Source: Escherichia coli 042 (GTDB lineage Bacteria > Pseudomonadota > Gammaproteobacteria > Enterobacterales > Enterobacteriaceae). Taken from it: a DNA stretch of 64,000 nucleotides. A program made the position numbers and the translations under genes. Under the pieces are notes generated by a model. It was given only the letters and a program-made list of their open reading frames with translations, was not told the origin of the DNA and did not search any database. Location: assembly GCF_000027125.1 (NCBI RefSeq), contig NC_017626.1; one strand, written 5' to 3'. Shown piece by piece: positions 8,352 through 32,023 of the stretch (the stretch's first letter is position 1; each line of letters begins with the position of its first letter).

Positions 8352-9908
8352 ATGTTCATACGCGCTCCCAATTCTGGACGTAAGCTCCTGCTTACCTGCA
8401 TTGTTGCAGGCGTGATGATTGCGATACTGGTGAGCTGCCTTCAGTTTTTAGTGGCCTGGCATAAGCACGAAGTCAAATACGACACACTGATTACCGACGT
8501 ACAAAAGTATCTCGATACCTATTTTGCCGACCTGAAATCCACTACTGACCGGCTCCAGCCGCTGACCTTAGATACCTGCCAGCAGGCTAACCCCGAACTG
8601 ACTGCCCGCGCGGCGTTTAGCATGAATGTCCGTACGTTTGTGCTGGTAAAAGATAAAAAAACATTCTGTTCATCTGCGACTGGTGAGATGGACATTCCAC
8701 TCAATGAATTGATTCCGGCGCTCGACATTAATAAAAACGTCGATATGGCGATCTTACCCGGCACGCCGATGGTGCCGAACAAACCCGCAATCGTCATTTG
8801 GTATCGCAACCCGTTGTTGAAAAATAGTGGCGTGTTTGCCGCGCTGAATCTCAATCTGACACCTTCACTCTTCTATAGCTCACGGCAGGAAGATTACGAT
8901 GGTGTCGCCCTCATTATTGGTAATACTGCGCTATCTACCTTTTCTTCACGTTTGATGAACGTTAATGAATTAACCGACATGCCGGTCCGTGAAACTAAAA
9001 TTGCGGGCATTCCTCTGACCGTTCGGCTTTATGCGGATGACTGGACATGGAACGATGTGTGGTACGCATTTTTACTGGGCGGCATGAGTGGAACTGTCGT
9101 TGGCCTGCTTTGCTATTACCTGATGAGCGTACGTATGCGCCCCGGCAGAGAAATCATGACCGCCATCAAGCGCGAACAATTTTACGTGGCGTATCAACCG
9201 GTGGTGGATACACAAGCTTTGCGGGTAACGGGCCTGGAAGTACTGCTACGCTGGCGGCATCCTGTAGCGGGAGAAATTCCCCCGGATGCCTTCATTAACT
9301 TTGCCGAATCGCAAAAGATGATTGTGCCGCTGACTCAGCACCTGTTTGAGTTAATTGCCCGCGATGCCGCAGAATTAGAAAAAGTACTGCCGGTAGGCGT
9401 CAAATTTGGCATTAACATTGCGCCGGACCATCTGCACAGCGAAAGCTTTAAAGCAGATATCCAGAAACTGCTCACTTCCCTGTCCGCACACCATTTCCAG
9501 ATTGTGCTGGAAATTACCGAGCGCGATATGCTGAAAGAGCAAGAAGCCACGCAACTCTTTGCCTGGCTACACTCGGTCGGCGTAGAAATTGCTATTGATG
9601 ACTTCGGTACCGGGCACAGCGCGCTTATCTACCTTGAGCGTTTTACGCTCGATTATCTGAAAATTGACCGTGGATTTATCAACGCCATCGGTACGGAAAC
9701 GATCACTTCACCCGTACTTGACGCGGTGCTGACGCTGGCGAAACGTCTCAATATGCTGACGGTTGCTGAAGGGGTCGAAACGCCGGAACAGGCGCGATGG
9801 CTAAGCGAACGCGGCGTTAATTTCATGCAAGGCTACTGGATTAGTCGCCCGTTACCGCTGGACGATTTTGTCCGCTGGCTGAAGAAACCGTATACGCCGC
9901 AGTGGTAA
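8352..9908 (+). CDS. pdeN: membrane EAL-domain c-di-GMP phosphodiesterase Rtn (PdeN)
   Basis: 518 aa, N-terminal TM segment, C-terminal EAL-type region (...QIVLEITERDML... IAIDDFGTGHSAL...). Confidence 0.9.
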   Translation: MFIRAPNSGRKLLLTCIVAGVMIAILVSCLQFLVAWHKHEVKYDTLITDVQKYLDTYFADLKSTTDRLQPLTLDTCQQANPELTARAAFSMNVRTFVLVKDKKTFCSSATGEMDIPLNELIPALDINKNVDMAILPGTPMVPNKPAIVIWYRNPLLKNSGVFAALNLNLTPSLFYSSRQEDYDGVALIIGNTALSTFSSRLMNVNELTDMPVRETKIAGIPLTVRLYADDWTWNDVWYAFLLGGMSGTVVGLLCYYLMSVRMRPGREIMTAIKREQFYVAYQPVVDTQALRVTGLEVLLRWRHPVAGEIPPDAFINFAESQKMIVPLTQHLFELIARDAAELEKVLPVGVKFGINIAPDHLHSESFKADIQKLLTSLSAHHFQIVLEITERDMLKEQEATQLFAWLHSVGVEIAIDDFGTGHSALIYLERFTLDYLKIDRGFINAIGTETITSPVLDAVLTLAKRLNMLTVAEGVETPEQARWLSERGVNFMQGYWISRPLPLDDFVRWLKKPYTPQW

Positions 9909-24119: not shown

Positions 24120-25364
24120 ATGGCAAGAAAGGCGACCCCACTCACCACCACACAGATCAAAGCAGCTAAACCAGCGGAAAAAGAATACACCTTACAGGAT
24201 GGCGGCGGGCTTTTTCTCGTCATTAAGCCATCTGGTTCGAAACTATGGCGATTCAACTACTATCGACCATCGAACAAAAAACGAACAATCATTAGTTTGG
24301 GATCGCTCGATGAAGTCTCCCTGGCTGATGCCAGAAAACGCCGTAGCGAGTACAGGACGTTAATTGCGTCAGGGATTGACCCACAGCATCACGAGCGGCA
24401 AAAACGCGAAGCAGAGGCCAGAAGACAGGGCAACACGTTCGAAAATGTGGCCGCATCGTGGTACGAAATGAAAAAAAACCAGAATCTCGCCCACAATACG
24501 ATCAAGGACATCTGGCGCTCGCTAGAGAAATATGTATTCCCGTATATCGGAAACACACCGATAGATACTCTCACCGCTCGCCGCTTTGTTGAGATACTCA
24601 CGCCCATCAAGACACGTGGCAACCTGGAAACACTGAAACGCGTTTTACAGCGCATCAATGAAGTGATGGATTTTGCTGCCAACAGTGGACTGATTGACAT
24701 CAACACCGCTGCGAACGTCCGCAAGGCATTCCCTTCCCCCACCAAAAAACACATGCCAACCATCCGACCAGAACAACTACCGCAGCTAATGCACGATTTA
24801 TCGATCGCCAGCATAGAACGGCAAACCAGATTGCTGATTGAGTGGCAGTTGTTAACCGCAACCCGTCCAGCCGAAGCCTCCGCCGCACGGTGGGAAGAAA
24901 TCAACCTTGATGCGGCAACATGGACGATACCAGCCGGACGCATGAAGATGCGCCGTGATCATGTGATCCCTCTTTGCGCTCAGGCGATGGCAGTGCTTGA
25001 AGCCATGAAGCCGATTAGCGCACGAAGGGAGCATGTTTTCCCAAGTCTTAAAAATCCAGTGCAACCAATGAGCAGCCAGACAGCAAACGCAGCATTACGG
25101 CGAATGGGTTACACTGGTGTACTGGTATCTCACGGGCTACGCGCCATATTCAGCACAGCGGCGAACGAAGAAGGATTTGAGCCGGACGTAATCGAGGCCG
25201 CACTCGCACACGTGGACACGAACGAAGTTAGACGGGCATACAACCGAAGCAACTACCTGGAAAAACGTAAAGTGTTAATGTGCTGGTGGGGTGATTTTGT
25301 GGAAGCAGCCTCAACCGGAACAACCATCGCCAGCGGGCACAGGGGATTACGCGGAATAAAATAA
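24120..25364 (+). CDS. int: P4-family tyrosine integrase
   Basis: 414 aa; N-terminal arm-binding-type region (KEYTLQDGGGLFLVIKPSGSKLWRFNYY...), C-terminal catalytic region with HGLRAIFST and a tyrosine near the end (RAYNRSNY); adjacent to a tRNA gene in the same orientation. Confidence 0.85.
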   Translation: MARKATPLTTTQIKAAKPAEKEYTLQDGGGLFLVIKPSGSKLWRFNYYRPSNKKRTIISLGSLDEVSLADARKRRSEYRTLIASGIDPQHHERQKREAEARRQGNTFENVAASWYEMKKNQNLAHNTIKDIWRSLEKYVFPYIGNTPIDTLTARRFVEILTPIKTRGNLETLKRVLQRINEVMDFAANSGLIDINTAANVRKAFPSPTKKHMPTIRPEQLPQLMHDLSIASIERQTRLLIEWQLLTATRPAEASAARWEEINLDAATWTIPAGRMKMRRDHVIPLCAQAMAVLEAMKPISARREHVFPSLKNPVQPMSSQTANAALRRMGYTGVLVSHGLRAIFSTAANEEGFEPDVIEAALAHVDTNEVRRAYNRSNYLEKRKVLMCWWGDFVEAASTGTTIASGHRGLRGIK

Positions 25365-25377
25365 AATATTTAAAAAA

Positions 25378-25417
25378 TTATTGGTTCCTAATTGGTACCA
25401 ATTTGGAGCCAATTTGT
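25378..25417. promoter_or_regulatory. operator-like palindrome cluster in the int-alpA intergenic region
   Basis: ttattggttcctaattggtaccaatttggagccaatttg contains the perfect 14-bp palindrome aattggtaccaatt (25390-25403) flanked by CCAATT/AATTGG half-sites, in an AT-rich region upstream of alpA. Confidence 0.4.
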
Positions 25418-25616
25418 GTCTCTTTACTGTCTCATTTTGAGAAATATTTAAAATTCTTTTTATGTTAGAAAATTAAAAAATAACCAATCACATAACTCTT
25501 ATTAAATAATTCTTGACTTGCTTTTTTATAGATTTGTATTCTTTTTATATGTTTTTACATGTTTACCGTCATTTTCATTCAAAAAGCGGTATTTTACTGT
25601 CTATAGGAGAAATAAG

Positions 25617-25808
25617 ATGAGGGCTATTCTTTTACGACCAGAGGTCAAGGCCTTGCTACGCATTAAATCTGATTCAACCCTAACGGAGATGGTTAACAAA
25701 GGCGGGTTCCCCAAAGGATTCCGTATCGGGCTGCGTCGCATTGGCTGGTATGAAGATGAGGTACTCGCCTGGTTGAAAGAACGTGAGAGAGAAACTCGTG
25801 AAGCATAA
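25617..25808 (+). CDS. alpA: AlpA-family phage transcriptional regulator / excisionase-like HTH protein
   Basis: 63 aa from the ATG at 25617 with an AGGAGA ribosome-binding site; MRAILLRPEVKALLRIKSDSTLTEMVNKGGFPKGFRIGLRRIGWYEDEVLAWLKERE has the AlpA-like pattern (...IG.R.IGW.E.EV..WL). Confidence 0.7.
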   Translation: MRAILLRPEVKALLRIKSDSTLTEMVNKGGFPKGFRIGLRRIGWYEDEVLAWLKERERETREA

Positions 25809-26266
25809 GTGTGATTAACGCTGGCCTGATTACTATCAAGCAACAAAACAATTAAGAGAGAACATTATAAATACTGGCAAAAATGCCCAAACAGGGGCAG
25901 GTTTTCGTTCAACCATAAAAAATTATGGCTGATGTTATTATTCAGTTCAAACCGTACGAACGAATTAATTGAACTAATAGCACTTCCGTTTTAAACGGAA
26001 ACGTACAATCGCATAGCTTAAACGACAAAAGAAATATGTTGCTTACGAATAAAACAAAGGCGACCGCAGAGGGTCGCCAGAAGGCATATATTAAACTTGA
26101 ATGCATCGCCAACAATGCCATATTTCCGGCTGGTGAGCAATGTGATTTGTGTGGTGGGCACACCTTCAACACATCCGACCACATGAGCAAGAAAACGGGA
26201 TATACTCACCAAATCCCTTATAAAACGGGGATCGGGATTACCACCCCGCTGGAGTTAACGGCGATA

Positions 26267-26290
26267 CAGACGCGCCACGCGTCTTTTTTT
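26267..26290 (+). terminator. candidate intrinsic terminator inside the alpA-icd gap
   Basis: cagacgcgccacgcgtc followed by T7 (GC stem gacgcg/cgcgtc, short loop), preceded by further stem-loops at 26058-26079 and 26226-26248. Confidence 0.5.
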
Positions 26291-26454
26291 GTATCGACGC
26301 ACACGCACGCCTTATCAATGGTGGGCTGTATGGGGCTGACTTCGGTCAGGCTGGTTTCCGTTAACACCAGTTGTGGTAACCCTGTACAGTCCACCGCCAG
26401 CGAGCTTACCACCTCCTGCGGTGGGTATATCCCAACGTTAACGGAGGCTGCCAA

Positions 26455-26694
26455 ATGGCTACTATCCCTGCCCTCGCACATACTCAGAACGCCTTTATCT
26501 GGCGCTTTATCATCGTTAATCCGAGTGATTCCCGCGTCGTTCACGTCGTGGCGTCAACCGAACAGGAAGCGCGTAACCGTTGTCCGTCCGGTTGTGTTGC
26601 CGTATTCGCTGCCCGTATTCGTCAGGGGGTAAGTCATGCTCAAGCGATTCCAGATAACCGCACGCGCTGTAAATCATCAAGGCCACGTTATTGA
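26455..26694 (+). CDS. Icd-like (host cell division inhibitor-like) small phage protein
   Basis: 79-aa ORF with a GGAGG ribosome-binding site 8 nt upstream; MATIPALAHTQNAFIWRFIIVNPSDSRVVHVVASTEQEARNRCPSGCVAVFAARI resembles the Icd-like small-protein family as I remember it. The 3' end overlaps the next ORF by 58 nt in another frame, so the true C-terminus is uncertain. Confidence 0.5.
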   Translation: MATIPALAHTQNAFIWRFIIVNPSDSRVVHVVASTEQEARNRCPSGCVAVFAARIRQGVSHAQAIPDNRTRCKSSRPRY

Positions 26695-26821
26695 TATTCG
26701 GCAAAACGTGAACGCCACCAGCGTTAATGCAGCTATAGCAATATTGAAAGAAGAGTTAATCGGCTGTAGGTTCACGCAGGTGATGATCCGTGCCGTAGTT
26801 GAAGTGTCGACTGTTCATTAA
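26636..26821 (+). CDS. hypothetical small phage-island protein
   Basis: 61-aa ORF with a strong GGGGGTAAG ribosome-binding site; MLKRFQITARAVNHQGHVIDIRQNVNATSVNAAIAILKEELIG...; no function recognised. Confidence 0.45.
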   Translation: MLKRFQITARAVNHQGHVIDIRQNVNATSVNAAIAILKEELIGCRFTQVMIRAVVEVSTVH

Positions 26822-26860
26822 TCTCATTAATACAGCTTTAACAAAAACGTAATTCGACAA

Positions 26861-27148
26861 ATGAAAGCAAAAAATTCTGGCTTTACTGCCAGCGGTAAAA
26901 CTCGTCCTAAATTCATGCACGGCGATATTTACCGCGATAAATACGGCAGCACGGTAATGATTAAGGGCGTGAGTGAACGACGCATTACCTACCGCCGTGA
27001 AGGATACAAATATGACTGCGTGATGCCTGTTTATCAGTTCCAGCGTGATTTTACGCTGGTGGATCATCGTGAAACCGTAAATCAGAACCGTGCAGCAAGA
27101 TACATCCGCAAAATCTGCGAAATGATGGTTACTGGGGGCAAGAAATGA
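26861..27148 (+). CDS. hypothetical protein, translationally coupled to the primase gene
   Basis: 95-aa ORF whose TGA stop overlaps the ATG of the downstream 712-aa ORF (ATGA); basic protein; no recognisable domain. Confidence 0.4.
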   Translation: MKAKNSGFTASGKTRPKFMHGDIYRDKYGSTVMIKGVSERRITYRREGYKYDCVMPVYQFQRDFTLVDHRETVNQNRAARYIRKICEMMVTGGKK

Positions 27149-29283
27149 AACGCGCACCGAATTTAAAGCACCAGCCGAAAGACAAAATGACGGAGGTGAT
27201 TATCTTTGCGGGTAGTGATGCCTGGGCACATGCGAAAGAGTGGAGCGAATGGGCCGGAAAGCATATTGCGGCAGATGATACACATCCAGTTATTCTTGGA
27301 CCGGAACAACTGGCGAGTCTGGCAGACACGCAAATCATCGACAAAGGGCGCTATTACGTGCGCGTTTATCGTGCTGGTGAAATATCAGAGCAGCACCTTA
27401 CACAGATAGCGACACTGCTTGCAGTGGCGGGTGTGAAGGAGGCGCGTTGCTACCGCAGCTTTGTTGATCAGCAGCCGGAGGACTGGACACCGCGCATGGC
27501 TGGACTGAAGGATGATGCGGAACGCGGTAACAGTCTGGTGATCAACCTTCCGGCGAAGACAAATTTCACCGGAAATTATGATGACGAATTAAAGCCTCGT
27601 GTTGAAAGTCGCGTCGATGGTGTTTTCTGGGTAACGCCCAAAGTGGACAAGCAGTCAGGCGAAATTATCCGGCCTGAGACGTGGTTATGTTCTCCGCTTG
27701 AACTACTGGGAACAGGAACAATCGGCAAAGAGCATTACCGCGTGATGCGCTGGAAAAAACCAGCAAACCATGAGGTCATTACAATGGCGGTCCCGTGCGG
27801 AGGCATTGGTGACCGTGACGGCTGGCGGTTGCTGAAAGACCACGGCCTTAACGTGACGACCAACGGCAAATACAGGGCTATCCTGGCTGACTGGATGCAG
27901 TTAAGCGGAAACCATGAGGAATGGCAGTTAAGCACAACAACGGGGTGGCATTTTGGTGCGTACATCATGCCGGATGGTTCGATCATCGGTGAATCAGAGA
28001 AACCCATCCTGTTTACCGGAAAAACTGCCGCTGTTAATGGCTATTCCGTGGCGGGAACAGCGGAGGGCTGGCGCGATACCGTGGCACGGCTGGCTGGTGG
28101 TAATCCGTCCATGATGCTGGGTGTGGCGGTATCGCTATCTGCACCATTAATCGGGCTGGTGGGTGCTGACGGCTTCGGGGTTCATCTTTTTGAGCAATCA
28201 TCAGCAGGTAAAACCACCACACAGAACATTGCATCAAGTTTATGGGGAGAGCCGGACGCGCAACGGCTGACCTGGTACGGAACGGCGTTAGGTATCGCCA
28301 ACGAGGCCGAAGCACATAATGACGGGCTGTTACCCCTGGATGAAATAGGCCAGGCCGGAAACGCACGGGAAGTGTCCACGTCGGCTTATACGCTGTTTAA
28401 CGGTTCGGGGAAATTACAGGGGGCGAAGGACGGCGGCAACAGGGAGATAAAACACTGGCGAACAGTGGCAATCAGTACCGGAGAAATGGACGTTGAAACA
28501 TTCCTCAAAAGTGAGGGGATAAAAGTCAAGGCTGGGCAGCTTGTCCGGTTGCTTAACGTGCCGATGGAGAAGTCCACGCAGTTTCACGAATACAGCACAG
28601 GAAAGGCGCACGCAGACGCGTTAAAGGATGCCTGGACAGCAAATCACGGGGCGGCAGGTCGTGAGTGGATTAAATGGCTAGCAGCCCACCAACAGGAGGC
28701 TAAGGACACGGTAAGGGCATGCCGTGAACGGTGGCGCAACCTGATACCGGAGAGCTACGGCGAACAGGTTCACCGCGTAGGGGAACGATTCGCCATACTG
28801 GAGGCCGCGCTTGTGCTGTCAGGCAATGTTACGGGCTGGGATGTTCAGGCGTGCCGTGATGCCATTCAGCATAACTTTAATGCCTGGGTGAAGGAGTTCG
28901 GCACGGGTAACAAGGAACACAGGCAGATTATTGAACAGGCAGAGGCATTTCTTACTGCCTACGGCATGAGCAGGTTTGCGCCTGTCAATTATGACCCTGC
29001 AAGCCTGCCGATTTCAGAACTGTACGGCTACAGGGAAAGCGAGGGGCGTTACGGTGAGCCTGTTTTGTTTTACGTCCTGCCGGAGCCATTTAAATCGCAT
29101 GTGGCGAAGGGATTTAACAAGGATGCCGTAGCAAGAGCCCTTCACGAAGCCGGAATGCTGAAAAAGCCAGCCAGCGGGGAAGGATGGCAAATCAGAACAC
29201 CACGTCTTAAGCACATGAAGGGGGCACGACTAAGGGTGTACGGCCTTTTACTTGCACAGGATCATGATGATGAAGGTGGTTAA
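27145..29283 (+). CDS. primase/helicase-like replication initiation protein (P4 alpha-like; P-loop NTPase core)
   Basis: 712-aa ORF; central Walker A-like FEQSSAGKTTTQN followed by acidic DE-type motifs (LPLDEIG); the size and the iterons immediately downstream fit a satellite replication protein. An alternative start at 27187 (MTEVIIFAG) is possible. Confidence 0.65.
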   Translation: MKRAPNLKHQPKDKMTEVIIFAGSDAWAHAKEWSEWAGKHIAADDTHPVILGPEQLASLADTQIIDKGRYYVRVYRAGEISEQHLTQIATLLAVAGVKEARCYRSFVDQQPEDWTPRMAGLKDDAERGNSLVINLPAKTNFTGNYDDELKPRVESRVDGVFWVTPKVDKQSGEIIRPETWLCSPLELLGTGTIGKEHYRVMRWKKPANHEVITMAVPCGGIGDRDGWRLLKDHGLNVTTNGKYRAILADWMQLSGNHEEWQLSTTTGWHFGAYIMPDGSIIGESEKPILFTGKTAAVNGYSVAGTAEGWRDTVARLAGGNPSMMLGVAVSLSAPLIGLVGADGFGVHLFEQSSAGKTTTQNIASSLWGEPDAQRLTWYGTALGIANEAEAHNDGLLPLDEIGQAGNAREVSTSAYTLFNGSGKLQGAKDGGNREIKHWRTVAISTGEMDVETFLKSEGIKVKAGQLVRLLNVPMEKSTQFHEYSTGKAHADALKDAWTANHGAAGREWIKWLAAHQQEAKDTVRACRERWRNLIPESYGEQVHRVGERFAILEAALVLSGNVTGWDVQACRDAIQHNFNAWVKEFGTGNKEHRQIIEQAEAFLTAYGMSRFAPVNYDPASLPISELYGYRESEGRYGEPVLFYVLPEPFKSHVAKGFNKDAVARALHEAGMLKKPASGEGWQIRTPRLKHMKGARLRVYGLLLAQDHDDEGG

Positions 29284-29308
29284 TCTCTCGCGTGTAGGTT
29301 TAAAAACT

Positions 29309-29443
29309 CTTGTCCCACCTGTCCCAACCTGTGAGAAACACACATAACATACTGAATTATATTGGGTAATATCAGAAAAAGTGGGACAAGAGCGGGACAA
29401 GTTAAGGTGATTTTGGGACAAGTTAGGAGCATTTTGGGACAAG
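29309..29443. repeat. iteron cluster 1 (GGGACAAG repeats), putative origin of replication
   Basis: Inverted copies CTTGTCCC at 29309-29316 and ctgtccca at 29319-29326, an AT-rich spacer, then four direct GGGACAAG copies at 29383-29390, 29394-29401, 29415-29422 and 29436-29443; immediately downstream of the primase gene. Confidence 0.6.
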
Positions 29444-29519
29444 TCAGCAGGCGTTATTTTTTGCCTGGCTGGTGGACATTAAAAATCCAACCAACATTTA
29501 AAACCGGAGAGCAGACAAT

Positions 29520-29945
29520 ATGACGGCACAAATATCAGCTTACGGGCGGTTGGTGGCTGACCCGCAGTTAAAAACCACCAGCAAGGGAACACCAATGGCG
29601 CTGGTGAGTATGGCTGTTCCCCTTCCGTGCAGTCAGGCATATGACGGAACAGCGACGATGTGGTTATCCGTCCTGGCGTTTGGCAGACAGGCCGATGCAC
29701 TGGCAAAACACCAGAAAGGCGAACTGGTGAGCATGGCGGGTAACATGCAGATAAGCCAGTGGACAGACCAGAACGGGGAAATGCGGCAGGGCTGGCAGGT
29801 CATCGCAGACAGCGTAATCAGTGCGCGAACCGTGCGACCAGGAGGCAGGAAAGGACAGCAAGGGCAGGCTACTGACGCACTGAACAGAACAAAGCAGCAG
29901 ACGGGCCAGCAGGATGACCCGTATGAGGACGAAATACCATTTTAA
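29520..29945 (+). CDS. ssb: single-stranded DNA-binding protein (SSB-like, OB fold)
   Basis: 141 aa; SSB-like layout with conserved aromatic positions, a Gly/Gln-rich linker and the acidic tail ...DDPYEDEIPF that resembles the E. coli SSB C-terminal DDDIPF. Confidence 0.75.
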   Translation: MTAQISAYGRLVADPQLKTTSKGTPMALVSMAVPLPCSQAYDGTATMWLSVLAFGRQADALAKHQKGELVSMAGNMQISQWTDQNGEMRQGWQVIADSVISARTVRPGGRKGQQGQATDALNRTKQQTGQQDDPYEDEIPF

Positions 29946-29980
29946 CTGCCAGTGGATTCACTAACAGAGGTTAACAAATA

Positions 29981-30517
29981 ATGACTACACTGACTATTAG
30001 CAGAAAACCGAAAGGCATTTACGGCATACCACAGAAAAAGACACAGACGACACAGCAGCAGGATAAAACCACATCAGCGCATAAAGTGATACCCGGCAAT
30101 CAGAACGCACAGCAGAGCCGCAAACAGAAGCCCACAGGGGCGACACCGTGGCGGCATATGACCAAACGCCAGGGCAAAAACCGCAGGCGCGTTAACCGTC
30201 TTATTGAACTATGGCCTGAATTATTCAGCCTGGAATCACCGAAGCCGCTTAAGGTAGGAATATTTGAAGACCTGATACAGGATATTGCCGTCAGGGCGCT
30301 GGCTTTTGGGTCAGGGGCATTACGTGCGGCGCTAGCATCTTATGCTCATTCTCCGCGTTATTACCGTGCCTTAATGGCTGGTGGCGTGCGTTACGATCTG
30401 AATAGCCAGCCATGCGGCGAGGTGACACAACAGGAACAGCAGGACGCGGAAGCACGACTGATGGCACTGAAAGAGAAGCGCAAACGTAAGTCGAACAAGG
30501 AGCAAGCTGGCGTATGA
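29981..30517 (+). CDS. FinO/ProQ-family RNA-chaperone-like protein
   Basis: 178 aa; basic Q/K-rich N-terminus, then LIELWPELFSLESPKPLKVGIFEDL...RYYRALMAGGVRYDLNSQPCGEV, which resembles the FinO/ProQ N-terminal domain signature; assignment from memory only. Confidence 0.5.
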   Translation: MTTLTISRKPKGIYGIPQKKTQTTQQQDKTTSAHKVIPGNQNAQQSRKQKPTGATPWRHMTKRQGKNRRRVNRLIELWPELFSLESPKPLKVGIFEDLIQDIAVRALAFGSGALRAALASYAHSPRYYRALMAGGVRYDLNSQPCGEVTQQEQQDAEARLMALKEKRKRKSNKEQAGV

Positions 30518-30798
30518 GTATGATTCACGACAGCAAAGCGGAAGATCTGGAGGCTAAAGGCCTGTACCGGAGAGCGGCAGCCCGATGGGCTGAGGTCATG
30601 CAACAGGTGAACACCGATAAGGAGCGCGAACAGGCAGTAAAGCGTCGCGCGAAATGTATCCACAAGGCAGCACGTTCGCCCGTCATGCTGGATAATTTCG
30701 GGGGCTTGAGAGAGGCAGCAAACCGCACACAGGCGGATATGGGGATAGAAATCGCAAAATCTGTCTGGCGGAACTACCAGACAGACAAGGTTTTATAG
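30514..30798 (+). CDS. PerC-family transcriptional regulator-like protein
   Basis: 94 aa; AEDLEAKGLYRRAAARWAEVM matches the PerC/Pch-type motif (AE.LE..GLWRRAA.RW..VM); start overlaps the previous stop (ATGA coupling). Confidence 0.55.
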   Translation: MSMIHDSKAEDLEAKGLYRRAAARWAEVMQQVNTDKEREQAVKRRAKCIHKAARSPVMLDNFGGLREAANRTQADMGIEIAKSVWRNYQTDKVL

Positions 30799-30854
30799 TG
30801 GCAGTTCTGCATTATTTTTTGTGTTATTGAGTTGTAGAGCGTTTCAGGAGTTTT

Positions 30855-31064
30855 TTGAATCACATGAACGTTTCGCTGGTGGATATTCTTGACAAGTTGC
30901 AGCCAGGCCGACGCGTGCCAGCTCGCCGCAGTGCCTGGCATCTTCCGTACATCGTCTTTCTCGAACGGCGCGGAAACGATTTGATTGCGTTGAATCCCGT
31001 CACAAAGGATAGCGTTACGCTATCTCCTGAGAGTCTACTAGCCACAGACTGGGAGTACTGCTAA
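30855..31064 (+). CDS. hypothetical protein
   Basis: 69-aa ORF with a CAGGAG ribosome-binding-like site upstream; last ORF before the ~0.9 kb non-coding iteron region; no recognisable motif. Confidence 0.3.
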   Translation: MNHMNVSLVDILDKLQPGRRVPARRSAWHLPYIVFLERRGNDLIALNPVTKDSVTLSPESLLATDWEYC

Positions 31065-31597
31065 ACACAAACGCATCGAGGGTGCTGGCGTGTTGCCAGC
31101 CCCACCCCCTCCGAAATGATCCCCCAAAAAGTGCAAAATGATCCCCCATTAACGAACAGAAAACAAACAAAGAGCAACAAATAATCATTATTTACAATTC
31201 TTGACAAAAACACCCCCTATTTATAACCCTACCAAATTTAAAATTACATCTACAAAACAATAAGTTACAAAATCAGCAACGGATCATTTCGGAAAAAACG
31301 GTTAGTCCCTTTTTCGAAAAGGGATCATTTTGTTGCTTAAACTCATATGCGGATTACATATCAATACGCTAGTGATAGCCGTTCTGGAATGCCACAGAAA
31401 CGCGCTGTAATCGATTCTGGCGCAATTAGCTGTGCTAGGTAATGATTTACCTATCTGGGGATGTTGCGCACGTCTGGATTGCGTTACCACCGAAGATTGT
31501 GCGCATATGGTGGCTGTTACGGTGGCCTCCCGACAACGCAAAATTGCGGCGGCACAGTCGGTTTACCGCGCTAACACGGCTTGATTCACTCGCTCGA

Positions 31598-31717
31598 CTT
31601 GTCCCACCTCCCCCCCCAACTTGTCCCAAAACAGCCTAGACTTGTCCCACCTTACCTAATTTATTTCTAACAAAATCAATTTGTTAGGTGCTGGTGGGAC
31701 AGGTGGGACGGGTGGGA
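31598..31717. repeat. iteron cluster 2 (CTTGTCCC x3 and GGTGGGAC x3 flanking an AT-rich spacer), putative second cis-replication site
   Basis: CTTGTCCC at 31598-31605, 31618-31625 and 31640-31647; inverted GGTGGGAC(A/G)G at 31692-31699, 31701-31708 and 31710-31717; followed by (TA)n at 31729-31740. Confidence 0.6.
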
Positions 31718-31998
31718 CGGGTGGTTTTGTATATATATATACGAAAAATTGCATTCAGGAGGGGGGCGAAATTCCTGCAATCCATTACTTATGGAACTGT
31801 CCGCCCCGTCAAATTTTTACGCCCGCGCAATTAAAAAAATGCGTCACGCAGGTGGGCATGATGCCGATATGCTTGTCGGGTTCAGCTTTTTAAGGCGGCT
31901 GTAGATGTCAGGTTATCCGTGCTCATCCACCAGCCAGCTTCATAGCGGATAGCCGGAAAATGGTAACGGTTAAAGCTGTACATTTTTGCAGCAAATCA

Positions 31999-32023
31999 TT
32001 TTAGTTATACGTTTAGATATACG
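31999..32023. repeat. right boundary direct repeat (putative attR)
   Basis: ttttagttatacgtttagatatacg, 23 of 25 identical to 24034-24058. Confidence 0.5.

Follow-up and report, generated by a model that had tools for sequence, protein, structure and literature searches.

What occupies the interval between the alpA-like gene and the Icd-like gene of E. coli 042 (positions 25809-26454 of the 64,000-nucleotide window that was analysed), and what would an RNA encoded there do? A sequence-only reading had seen stacked hairpins, a terminator and no convincing protein gene, and had suggested an immunity-type RNA of the kind found at the equivalent position in phage P4 or, alternatively, a leader of the replication operon. 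Comparison with RNA families and homologous elements leads us to a reading that joins both suggestions, to which we give a probability of about 0.85: the interval carries a known two-RNA switch, in which an IsrK/SeqA-type leader precedes an antisense RNA of the C4/CI type, and its 3' half is a P4/P1-type RNA immunity module within the leader of the replication operon. The module is an ordinary member of families that have already been described, and there is nothing novel about the module itself.

The host element is a small, proL-integrated PICI-like island. The alpA-like helix-turn-helix/excisionase gene on its plus strand (25617..25808), seen in the list of open reading frames and matched by PHROG excisionase/regulator families, is the counterpart of P4 vis and is named 'helix-turn-helix transcriptional regulator' in the RefSeq records of near-identical islands. 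The Icd-like gene (26455..26694, plus strand; NCBIfam NF033153, 61.9 bits with a cutoff of 25) is the first gene to be translated downstream of the RNA module. Its product has 36% identity to P1 Icd (E 2e-7) and gave no BLASTP alignment with P4 Kil. Beyond it, reading frames and the annotation of near-identical islands define a plus-strand operon (26636..29283) that encodes a hypothetical protein, a DUF4222 protein and a DUF927 primase/helicase, and that is presumably under the control of the module. An Rfam scan of positions 23000-32000, with E values allowed up to 10, returned only tRNA-Pro, isrK, C4 and sub-threshold noise, with no match to the int-alpA RNA; no convincing attR repeat of the tRNA emerged at the search settings used.

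The first RNA is a leader of the IsrK or P4 SeqA type, located at 26213..26289 on the plus strand (Rfam RF01394, E 2.3e-9). Its score of 52.9 bits is marginal, only 3 above the gathering score of 50, and is the lowest among the homologs, the others scoring 56.9-75.1. The layout is nevertheless that of RF01394, with two 5' hairpins (26213-26232 and 26233-26248), a linker and a Rho-independent terminator, placed directly upstream of a C4-family RNA. The leader helices covary, and the homologs hold the same position relative to C4; the distance from leader to C4 is 24 nt here and 24-27 nt in every homolog except P4 (107 nt). The terminator (26268..26290) has a 7-bp stem, AGACGCG/CGCGTCT at 26268-26284, a CCA loop and a U7 tract encoded by the T7 run at 26284-26290, and a terminator scan recovers the same site. 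Both this terminator and the hairpin cggggatcgggattaccaccccg had been noticed previously, the latter exactly where we find it, at 26226-26248. The RNA ending at 26290 had, however, been suggested as the equivalent of CI; it is instead the leader of IsrK/SeqA type, with its target or decoy sites, and the true C4, just past the terminator, had been overlooked.

That second RNA, at 26314..26401 on the plus strand, matches RF01695 over its full length (model positions 1-87), scoring 77.7 bits where the gathering score is 45 (E 2.4e-14). By reference to the annotated C4 of P1, the mature species would be approximately 26320-26398. Its minimum free energy fold is the family structure (z = -3.8), in which a long closing stem surrounds two hairpins, and this layout is supported by covariation: across a set of 24 diverse modules that includes P4 and P1, the closing stem of 17 bp shows 100% pairing and 8 of its 17 pairs have changed on both sides in a compensatory manner, and four of the five pairs of hairpin A show compensatory changes. 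The Rfam scan and the folding and covariation analysis that had been proposed as checks thus both return the two-RNA module, with both family scores above their gathering scores and with intra- and intermolecular helices that covary. The 3' half of the interval stands well beyond chance (Rfam E 2e-9 and 2e-14, plus covariation), and the region 26200-26470 folds with z = -4.0. Homology with other elements runs from 3 nt inside the RNA start to about 20 nt into the downstream gene. Over 26216-26474 there is ~84% nucleotide identity to the isrK/C4 modules of Stx-converting lambdoid phages and Gram-negative PICIs, and in a GenBank record of an Stx2 phage both RNAs are annotated, arranged as they are here; these modules differ in their a'/b' specificity, and the phages have Rha/Ant-type regulators downstream.

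Further evidence comes from the sites through which the antisense RNA is expected to pair, all of which lie on the plus strand. Two exposed, single-stranded segments of C4, b' (UCCGUUAAC, 26357..26365) in the loop of the second hairpin and a' (GUGGUAA, 26373..26379) in the junction, are each complementary to two target sites. The first pair of targets, a1 (UUACCAC, 26238..26244) and b1 (GUUAACGG, 26254..26261), lies inside the IsrK-like leader; the second, a2 (UUACCAC, 26406..26412) and b2 (GUUAACGGA, 26437..26445), is just upstream of the Icd-like gene. All six sites are perfectly matched in the window: a' pairs at 7 of 7 positions with both a1 and a2, and b' is complementary to b1 over 8 nt and to b2 over 9 nt. 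The Icd-like gene has its own strong Shine-Dalgarno sequence (GGAGG, 26443-26447; ATG at 26455), which b2 overlaps, and b2 can be extended to 26447 by two G-U pairs over that sequence. When validated on P1, the same complementarity search recovered the annotated a1, b1, a2 and b2 exactly, and the geometry in the window is the same. In the 24 modules the intramolecular helices are 95.3% paired, with compensatory changes at 20 of 45 pairs. The pairing of C4 with a2/b2 is 96.3% maintained, 13 of the 16 pairs showing compensatory changes, and that with a1/b1 is 96.1% maintained (13 of 15 pairs), compared with 30-52% in slid controls.

These specificities are highly diverse, with 25 distinct a'/b' combinations in 53 modules, and the combination in the window is absent from the other modules examined (n = 92 unique). 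Comparison with L001, an island of the same lineage, shows that b1, b' and b2 have changed in concert, b1 by an AC-to-CA change that is coordinated with those in b' (GT at 26360-61 in the window, TG in L001) and b2, and that leader hairpin 1 has undergone a compensatory change. L001 shares with the window the rearrangement described below, implying selection on pairing within this lineage, after or around that shared event. Pairing specificity in these modules thus diversifies through coordinated changes at three sites, even between islands that are ~95% identical, and this is how such elements would escape one another's immunity.

Which of the known systems does the module most resemble? IsrK is equivalent to seqA, and C4 to CI (PMC3632133), and both RNA models also match Gram-negative PICIs (PMC10111431). 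The same two Rfam models match P4 itself, isrK at the seqA leader and RF01695 at the CI RNA (74.9 bits); the module is therefore genuinely homologous to the immunity region of P4 and to P1 immI. In P4 the order, downstream of vis, is PLE, seqA, CI RNA/seqB, seqC, kil/eta and, further on, the alpha primase. Order and strand correspond in the window (alpA/vis, a seqA-type leader with its terminator, CI/C4, a second pair of sites, a small gene and a primase operon), the downstream a and b sites have the same offsets from the C4 start (+92 and +123), an Eta-type ORF overlaps the RNAs, and replication genes are under control in both. There are differences, however. P4 has 84 extra nucleotides between leader and CI, making its module 273 nt compared with 189 nt in the window; the primase of the window is of the DUF927 type; and the Icd-like protein is without BLASTP similarity to P4 Kil. 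The core set of P4-like satellites comprises int, psu, delta, sid, alpA, epsilon/Ash and alpha (de Sousa and Rocha, PMC8628076). The annotated genes of a near-identical island are int, the helix-turn-helix gene, an Ash-type ORF, Icd, DUF4222, the DUF927 primase, SSB, ProQ/FinO and PerC, and psu, sid and delta are not among them, as judged from annotation.

The immI region of P1/P7 (c4, icd, ant) has the same layout of a1-b1, C4, a2-b2 and icd. Between a and b the spacing is 16 nt and 31 nt in the window, as opposed to 14 nt and 29 nt for P1; in each case the icd ATG follows the end of b2 by ~10 nt, and an icd homolog is the first gene after C4. In P1 the C4 and c4-a1b1 models match at the annotated c4 gene; in contrast to the window, there is no isrK-family match, c4-a1b1 being matched instead. 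The outputs also differ, since the P1 operon expresses the antirepressor Ant under control of the C1 repressor at Op51, whereas in the window replication genes lie downstream and no ant gene follows icd.

A mechanism can be proposed by analogy. As in P1 and P4, transcription would start at ~26213, from a putative -10 element at 26201-06, and most transcripts would end at 26290, giving a short RNA. Processing of read-through transcripts, for which P1 and P4 use RNase P, would yield a stable C4 RNA, which would then pair with a2/b2 on further read-through transcripts, masking the icd ribosome site and blocking icd translation. The untranslated RNA would be terminated in a Rho-dependent manner, leaving the hypothetical protein, DUF4222 and DUF927 primase genes off and the island quiescent. 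Homology thus makes it likely that processed C4 masks the icd ribosome site and that the replication operon is consequently silenced through termination, with Rho-dependence and RNase P processing carried over here from P1 and P4. Since the short leader RNA carries the same a/b sites, it could be a further target of C4, the co-target role known from P4, or else a decoy or activator like IsrK of Gifsy-1. This two-RNA immunity switch probably sets whether the proL-integrated, satellite-like island replicates. Among published systems the role of a1/b1 varies, being that of a co-target in P4 and part of the activator in Gifsy-1.

The Gifsy-1 precedent raises the most substantial alternative, that the RNA ending at 26290 is mainly a positive regulator, which opens or titrates the inhibitory structure, or C4, on read-through transcripts in trans and thereby turns on translation, so that the switch is one of activation and not of immunity repression. 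In the Salmonella locus isrK - orf45/STnc1160 - anrP, one promoter gives both IsrK, a short RNA that ends at a terminator, and a read-through mRNA, and a processed stable RNA lies downstream of IsrK; IsrK binds Hfq and acts in trans on the read-through mRNA, the documented outcome being activation (PMC4825925). The likeness extends to start codons located in the 5' stem of C4: the window has ATGs in frame at 26318 and 26330, with the position and the 12-nt spacing of the two orf45 start codons of Gifsy-1, and the leader of the window holds exact copies of a2 and b2. In Gifsy-1, however, the downstream gene is the antirepressor-like anrP, translationally coupled to orf45, whereas the next gene in the window is icd-like and has its own strong Shine-Dalgarno sequence, which b2 covers directly as in P1. 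C4/CI RNA is, moreover, a demonstrated repressor in P1 and P4. We regard a primarily activating role as possible but unlikely, and it is in any case compatible with repression by C4 and does not exclude it.

How intact is the switch in this particular lineage? Alignment of 53 upstream regions gives a homolog promoter of TTGATT-17 nt-TACACT, with its -10 ending 6 nt before the RNA start. The window retains a good -10 at the conserved position (TATACT, 26201..26206, plus strand), but has ACCACA in place of the conserved -35 TTGATT, and with this element missing the module may be weakly expressed or silent.

A second change concerns the 198-aa reading frame (26036..26632, plus strand), which runs straight through the terminator, as had been noted, and ends 4 nt before the ATG of the next gene. 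It had been described as low-complexity, but it is more than noise. Its N-terminal part (aa 2-41) has 58% identity to ORFs that begin right after alpA in other islands, Pfam PF10554 (Phage_ASH) matches aa 58-147 with E 3.9e-8, PHROG families match aa 51-140, and 49 of 53 homologous modules keep the frame open. The ORF looks like a degenerate counterpart of P4 eta whose start region has been replaced. P4 Eta has 197 aa, and its translation from an upstream promoter overrides termination. The statement that the interval has no convincing protein gene must therefore be qualified, since the ORF appears degenerate and yet has homologs of the P4 Eta type. Homologs of the ORF had been expected to speak against an RNA; as the counterpart of P4 eta overlaps the RNAs, this was a false dichotomy, and the RNA module stands although the homologs exist. 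We also considered 'Ash' as a purely spurious translation of the RNA, which is only partly true, in that what Pfam and PHROG match is the stretch occupied by the RNA module. Against this are the frame that is open in so many homologs, the N-terminus homologous to post-alpA ORFs, and the agreement with P4 Eta, for which the Eta/Kil logic has been summarised (PMC10111431).

In the window this ORF has lost the connections that eta has in P4. Eta-type ORFs of P4 and of the related elements L010 and L013 start 0-10 nt after the alpA/vis stop, in P4 at the vis stop itself and in frame with kil. In the window the ATG at 26036 is 228 nt past the alpA stop, with an in-frame stop codon at 25970 and no Shine-Dalgarno sequence, so that the translational coupling is not found. 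The icd gene is in the ORF frame in 46 of the 53 homologous modules but not in the window, because the spacer between its Shine-Dalgarno sequence and ATG is 1 nt shorter; the icd ATG is at +242 (frame 2), and the ORF is consequently neither in frame nor co-terminal with icd. An Eta-like ORF that is uncoupled and frame-shifted in this way suggests that the P4-style override may be non-functional here.

A speculative extension, to which we attach little weight, is that the P4-type switch has been rewired in this lineage, with the -35 and a minus-strand cassette lost and the Eta-like ORF cut from alpA and out of the icd frame. The act of translating across the module, not a protein product, would then be the override signal, provided that translation in the ORF frame or read-through from alpA still occurs. 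Related islands have long 'nonsense' ORFs of up to 429 codons that run through antisense genes, isrK and C4; if the idea is true, such ORFs would make ribosome-shield antitermination a widespread device among PICI-like satellites.

The same changes could mean instead that the locus is a decaying relic, in which the RNAs are still recognisable by homology but are no longer expressed or regulatory, following a rearrangement that took away the promoter -35 and the adjacent cassette and damaged the Eta-like ORF. The replaced -35, the minus-strand YlcI/YnfO cassette that is present in L002 and L013 and missing here, the replaced ORF start region and the icd gene out of frame are all what decay would produce, as is a mutated icd stop codon at 26641, which gives a protein of 79 aa compared with 62 aa in relatives. 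Decay is, however, difficult to reconcile with six pairing sites that all remain perfectly matched, with the co-changed b sites and compensated hairpin 1 that distinguish the window from L001 and point to selection on pairing in this same lineage, or with an arrangement that is maintained in ~65 genomes and an island whose int, alpA and primase genes are intact in the list of reading frames. We consider a relic improbable, slightly more so than the rewiring just outlined.

A purely cis-acting attenuator, in which the terminator at 26290 limits read-through into the replication operon with no trans-acting RNA, is plausible in principle given the strength of that terminator in the leader. It would leave unexplained both the C4-family structure past the terminator and the presence of two sets of target sites, each covarying with the C4 loops, and is very unlikely. 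Least credible of all is conservation due to a protein-coding 'Ash family' gene with incidental RNA-model matches, for although Phage_ASH and several PHROG families match the ORF, RefSeq uses the name 'ash family protein' and the frame is so widely open, the family matches are confined to nt 26207-26476, precisely the RNA module, the similarity to P4 Eta is marginal (E 0.029) whereas both RNA models score strongly on P4, compensatory double changes and long-range three-way changes are inexplicable by protein constraint, a strong intrinsic terminator lies inside the ORF, and the frame is interrupted by stops in some homologs (L003, L007).

We are left with the two-RNA immunity module, the main value of which is for annotation. 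The RefSeq records of near-identical islands have no ncRNA features at the module and label the overlapping ORF as an 'ash family' or 'hypothetical' pseudogene, beneath which lies an unannotated two-RNA switch whose six pairing sites can now be given exact coordinates. Current understanding of the P1, P4 and IsrK systems is unchanged by these results.

Finally, the sequence upstream of the module differs in character. All of the hairpins, the terminator and the 198-aa ORF reported in the sequence-only reading are present, with small offsets in their coordinates, but its two upstream hairpins lie outside the RNA module. One of these, ccgttttaaacgg, given previously as 25988-26003 and found here at 25986-25998, is weak (-7 kcal/mol, z = -2.7) and falls, with a weak plus-strand terminator-like hairpin (25884-25899), in a spacer (25809..26048) that is matched only in the ~65 genomes covering at least 80% of the query. 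Since the spacer is limited to this island lineage and nearly invariant there, the 25986-25998 hairpin is unsupported, and a function for the spacer is likewise without support. The block that follows (26049..26157) is conserved at ~80% identity in ~700 E. coli genomes and codes for the N-terminus of the Eta-like ORF. We considered it as a minus-strand sRNA or a 3'UTR-derived sRNA, but it has no Rfam match, its fold (z = -0.7) has nothing notable beyond the terminator hairpin, and it proved to be the coding N-terminus of the plus-strand ORF, so that an sRNA is less likely. The other upstream hairpin, ggcgaccgcagagggtcgcc, previously placed at 26058-26079 and found at 26059-26078, lies inside this coding part and is conserved in the same ~700 genomes. 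Read on the minus strand it is an intrinsic terminator, GGCGACC..GGTCGCC followed by TTTGTTTTA, with its T-run at 26050-26058; in other islands the conserved block lies directly 3' of the minus-strand YlcI/YnfO gene that the window has lost.

The interval between the alpA-like gene and the Icd-like gene (25809-26454) carries two structured RNAs. An Rfam scan of 23000-32000, with the curated gathering scores as thresholds, gave two plus-strand matches above threshold: isrK (RF01394) at 26213-26289 (52.9 bits against a gathering score of 50, E 2.3e-9) and C4 antisense RNA (RF01695) at 26314-26401 (77.7 bits against 45, E 2.4e-14). The sequence-only reading of this DNA had proposed a P4-type immunity RNA here, to be checked by a scan for P4 CI or isrK-like families. 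The system and the P4 analogy stand, since the same C4 model matches phage P4 at 8420-8507, in the CI RNA region (74.9 bits), and the same isrK model matches it at 8615-8692, the PLE/seqA leader (60.8 bits). The RNA that was named does not stand. The terminator hairpin and its T7 are present (stem 26268-26284, T7 26284-26290) and were also found by a terminator scan, but the RNA ending there, taken for the CI equivalent, is of the isrK/SeqA type; C4, which begins 24 nt further on, had been overlooked. The second helix of the isrK match is the third hairpin of that reading (26226-26248) and its third helix is the terminator.

In phage P1, the C4 model matches the annotated c4 gene and the c4-a1b1 model its a1/b1 region. 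These shared matches make the window module a homolog of both the P4 immunity region and P1 immI. The equivalence of isrK/SeqA and C4/CI has been published before: the paper on IsrK describes SeqA as structurally homologous to IsrK and regards the processed RNA that lies downstream of IsrK as the analog of CI (PMC4825925), and a GenBank Stx2-phage record annotates an 'isrK Hfq binding RNA' and then a 'C4 antisense RNA' in a module ~84% identical to that of the window. The feature is thus already known, as a member of curated, experimentally studied families that have been reported in PICIs.

Pairing sites were sought as complements of C4 within its flanks. The loop of the second C4 hairpin carries b' (UCCGUUAAC, 26357-26365), which is complementary to b1 (GUUAACGG, 26254-26261), in the single-stranded linker of the leader, and to b2 (GUUAACGGA, 26437-26445). 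The C4 junction segment a' (GUGGUAA, 26373-26379) is likewise complementary to a1 (UUACCAC, 26238-26244), in the loop of leader hairpin 2, and to a2 (UUACCAC, 26406-26412). Extended by two G-U pairs, the b'-b2 duplex spans the entire Shine-Dalgarno sequence (GGAGG, 26443-26447) of the Icd-like gene; the start codon of this gene, ATG, is at 26455. Run on P1, the complement search recovered exactly the a1, b1, a2 and b2 coordinates annotated in the P1 record, and across eleven loci, including P4, the offsets of the sites from C4 are constant and their sequences vary. The C4 closing stem has a 3' strand (CCACCGC) that could also pair with GCGGUGG at 26418-26424 (region 26402-26425); most homologs keep this complement at that offset, with covariation, which suggests an alternative precursor structure that involves a2.

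Covariation across homologous islands, also proposed as a check, bears out both helices and pairing sites. An IMG/VR pattern scan added 120 loci, which brought the set to 92 unique modules. Of these, 53 have canonical geometry and between them carry 25 distinct a'/b' combinations; among the modules compared, that of the window was found in no other. For the covariation alignment, 24 diverse modules, including P4, P1 and an Actinobacillus phage, were picked without reference to a/b complementarity. The isrK and C4 helices of the Rfam structures have 95.3% of cells paired, with both-side changes in 20 of 45 pairs; the corresponding values are 96.3% and 13 of 16 for C4 with a2/b2, and 96.1% and 13 of 15 for C4 with a1/b1. 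In all three tests slid controls gave 30-52% paired, and no shuffle reached the observed percentage or covariation score.

The island of strain CV839-06 (L001) is ~95% identical to the window island. Between the two, an identical dinucleotide swap is seen at b1 (26258-59), b' (26360-61) and b2 (26441-42), a coordinated three-site change of antisense specificity; leader hairpin 1 also shows compensatory changes. Up to 26207 almost nothing separates the two islands, and their divergence sets in at the RNA start. Megablast alignments with unrelated elements likewise run from 26216 to 26474. The RNA module, and not the ORF, is thus the unit of exchange. Compensatory changes inside the lineage also weigh against the module being a relic, in which the RNAs are recognisable but decayed in this island. 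The promoter favours a relic. Homologs have TTGATT, 17 nt, and TACACT, with 6 nt between the end of the -10 and the RNA start. In the window a -10 remains (TATACT, 26201-06), but ACCACA stands at the -35 position in place of TTGATT. This missing -35 consensus is the main reason for doubting full activity of the module.

How the antisense module would act in the island is inferred by homology. The P1 record states in its feature notes that C4, a processing product of the c4-icd-ant leader, pairs with a2/b2 and blocks translation of icd; ant goes unexpressed when icd is not translated. Citron and Schuster, in 1990, reportedly described this C4 pairing with a2/b2, with icd translation blocked and ant unexpressed; later work dealt with Rho-dependent termination. 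The CI RNA of P4 pairs with seqA and seqC, preventing kil translation, and its action leads to termination at timm, so that the alpha operon is kept off (PMC10111431; PMC4825925). By the same logic all genes from icd up to and including that of the DUF927 primase would be silenced here. The short RNA ending at 26290 bears a1/b1 and could be a co-target, as in P4, or a decoy or activator in trans. For Gifsy-1 IsrK, the short form has been demonstrated to act in trans, turning on translation of the read-through form (PMC4825925); the two orf45 start codons of Gifsy-1 correspond in position and spacing to the in-frame ATGs of the window at 26318 and 26330.

The stem-loops at 25986-25998, 26059-26078 and 26226-26248 are all present, with offsets of a few bases, but the first two, which the sequence-only reading had listed upstream of the terminator, lie outside the switch. 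That at 25986-98 is weak and unsupported. That at 26059-78 has a conserved stem and a variable loop, is followed by TTTGTTTTA on the minus strand, and reads as a minus-strand intrinsic terminator; in other islands it directly follows the 3' end of a minus-strand YlcI/YnfO gene, which is deleted in the window. The region 25809-26048 is confined to this island lineage and nearly invariant within it. The following 109 nt (26049-26157) occur at ~80% identity in ~700 of 5,426 complete E. coli genomes, and double as coding sequence for the conserved N-terminus of an Eta-like plus-strand ORF.

This 198-aa ORF (26036-26632) is present as first reported, but was dismissed too quickly. Pfam Phage_ASH covers just residues 58-147 (nt 26207-26476), PHROG matches do the same, and RefSeq labels it 'ash family protein' or a 'hypothetical' pseudogene. 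The open frame, the P4 counterpart and the N-terminal homology argue against a spurious translation of the RNAs. Of 53 homologs, 49 have no stop in this frame across the module; the remaining frames are open in 22 and 0 of the 53. The P4 counterpart opens at the vis stop codon, spans PLE, seqA, CI and seqC, and shares its frame with the 65-aa gene that follows seqC, the pair being eta/kil (PMC10111431). Residues 2-41 share 58% identity (E 2e-12) with the beginning of a 221-aa ORF of the related island L010 (L010:2491-3156, plus strand), which starts 7 nt past alpA and has Icd as its end. In another, L013, a 429-codon ORF (L013:2494-3783, plus strand) opens at the alpA stop, crosses two annotated minus-strand genes and then isrK and C4, and continues into Icd. 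ORFs of this kind (221-429 codons) start within 7-10 nt of the alpA stop, lie antisense to annotated YlcI/YnfO and hypothetical genes, finish in frame as the Icd-like protein, and are not annotated by RefSeq in the related islands. Kept open over >1 kb, they have the look of a translate-through ORF of the P4 Eta type, and by the open frame, the eta/kil layout and the L010/L013 homology the 198-aa ORF is of this type also. In P4, termination is prevented when eta is translated from the late promoter upstream (PMC10111431). Protein similarity to P4 Eta is marginal (E 0.029), and similarity at the RNA level strong. The window copy looks degenerate; its first codons and upstream region are replaced, it is without a Shine-Dalgarno sequence, it lies 228 nt from alpA, and the minus-strand cassette is deleted. 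The SD-ATG spacer is 1 nt shorter, so that icd is out of frame with the ORF.

The window is E. coli chromosome, with a small integrated island after yejM and tRNA-Pro(GGG) (23837-23913). The island holds the integrase gene (24120-25364), the alpA-like HTH gene (25617-25808) and, directly past the interval, the Icd-like gene (26455-26694); a small hypothetical gene and a DUF4222 gene then precede the DUF927 primase/helicase gene (27145-29283), and SSB, ProQ/FinO and PerC-type regulator genes lie 3' of it, next to the chromosomal yejO autotransporter. Gene annotation places no sid, psu, delta or capsid genes in the island, which argues against a canonical P4-like satellite and for a PICI-like or P4-related element. 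At 26641 the Icd-like stop codon, TAA in near-identical islands, is CAA in the window, so the ORF has 79 aa instead of 62 and overlaps the following gene by 59 nt. The int-alpA intergenic region (25365-25616) is very AT-rich and has no match to the Rfam int-alpA RNA family; the related island L011 does match it, at L011:25-92. Iteron-like direct repeats (CTTGTCCCACCT..., GGGACAAGTTA...) at 29309-29435, between the primase and SSB genes, are a candidate for the island replication origin, and further iteron-like copies are found at 31598-31659, near the island end.
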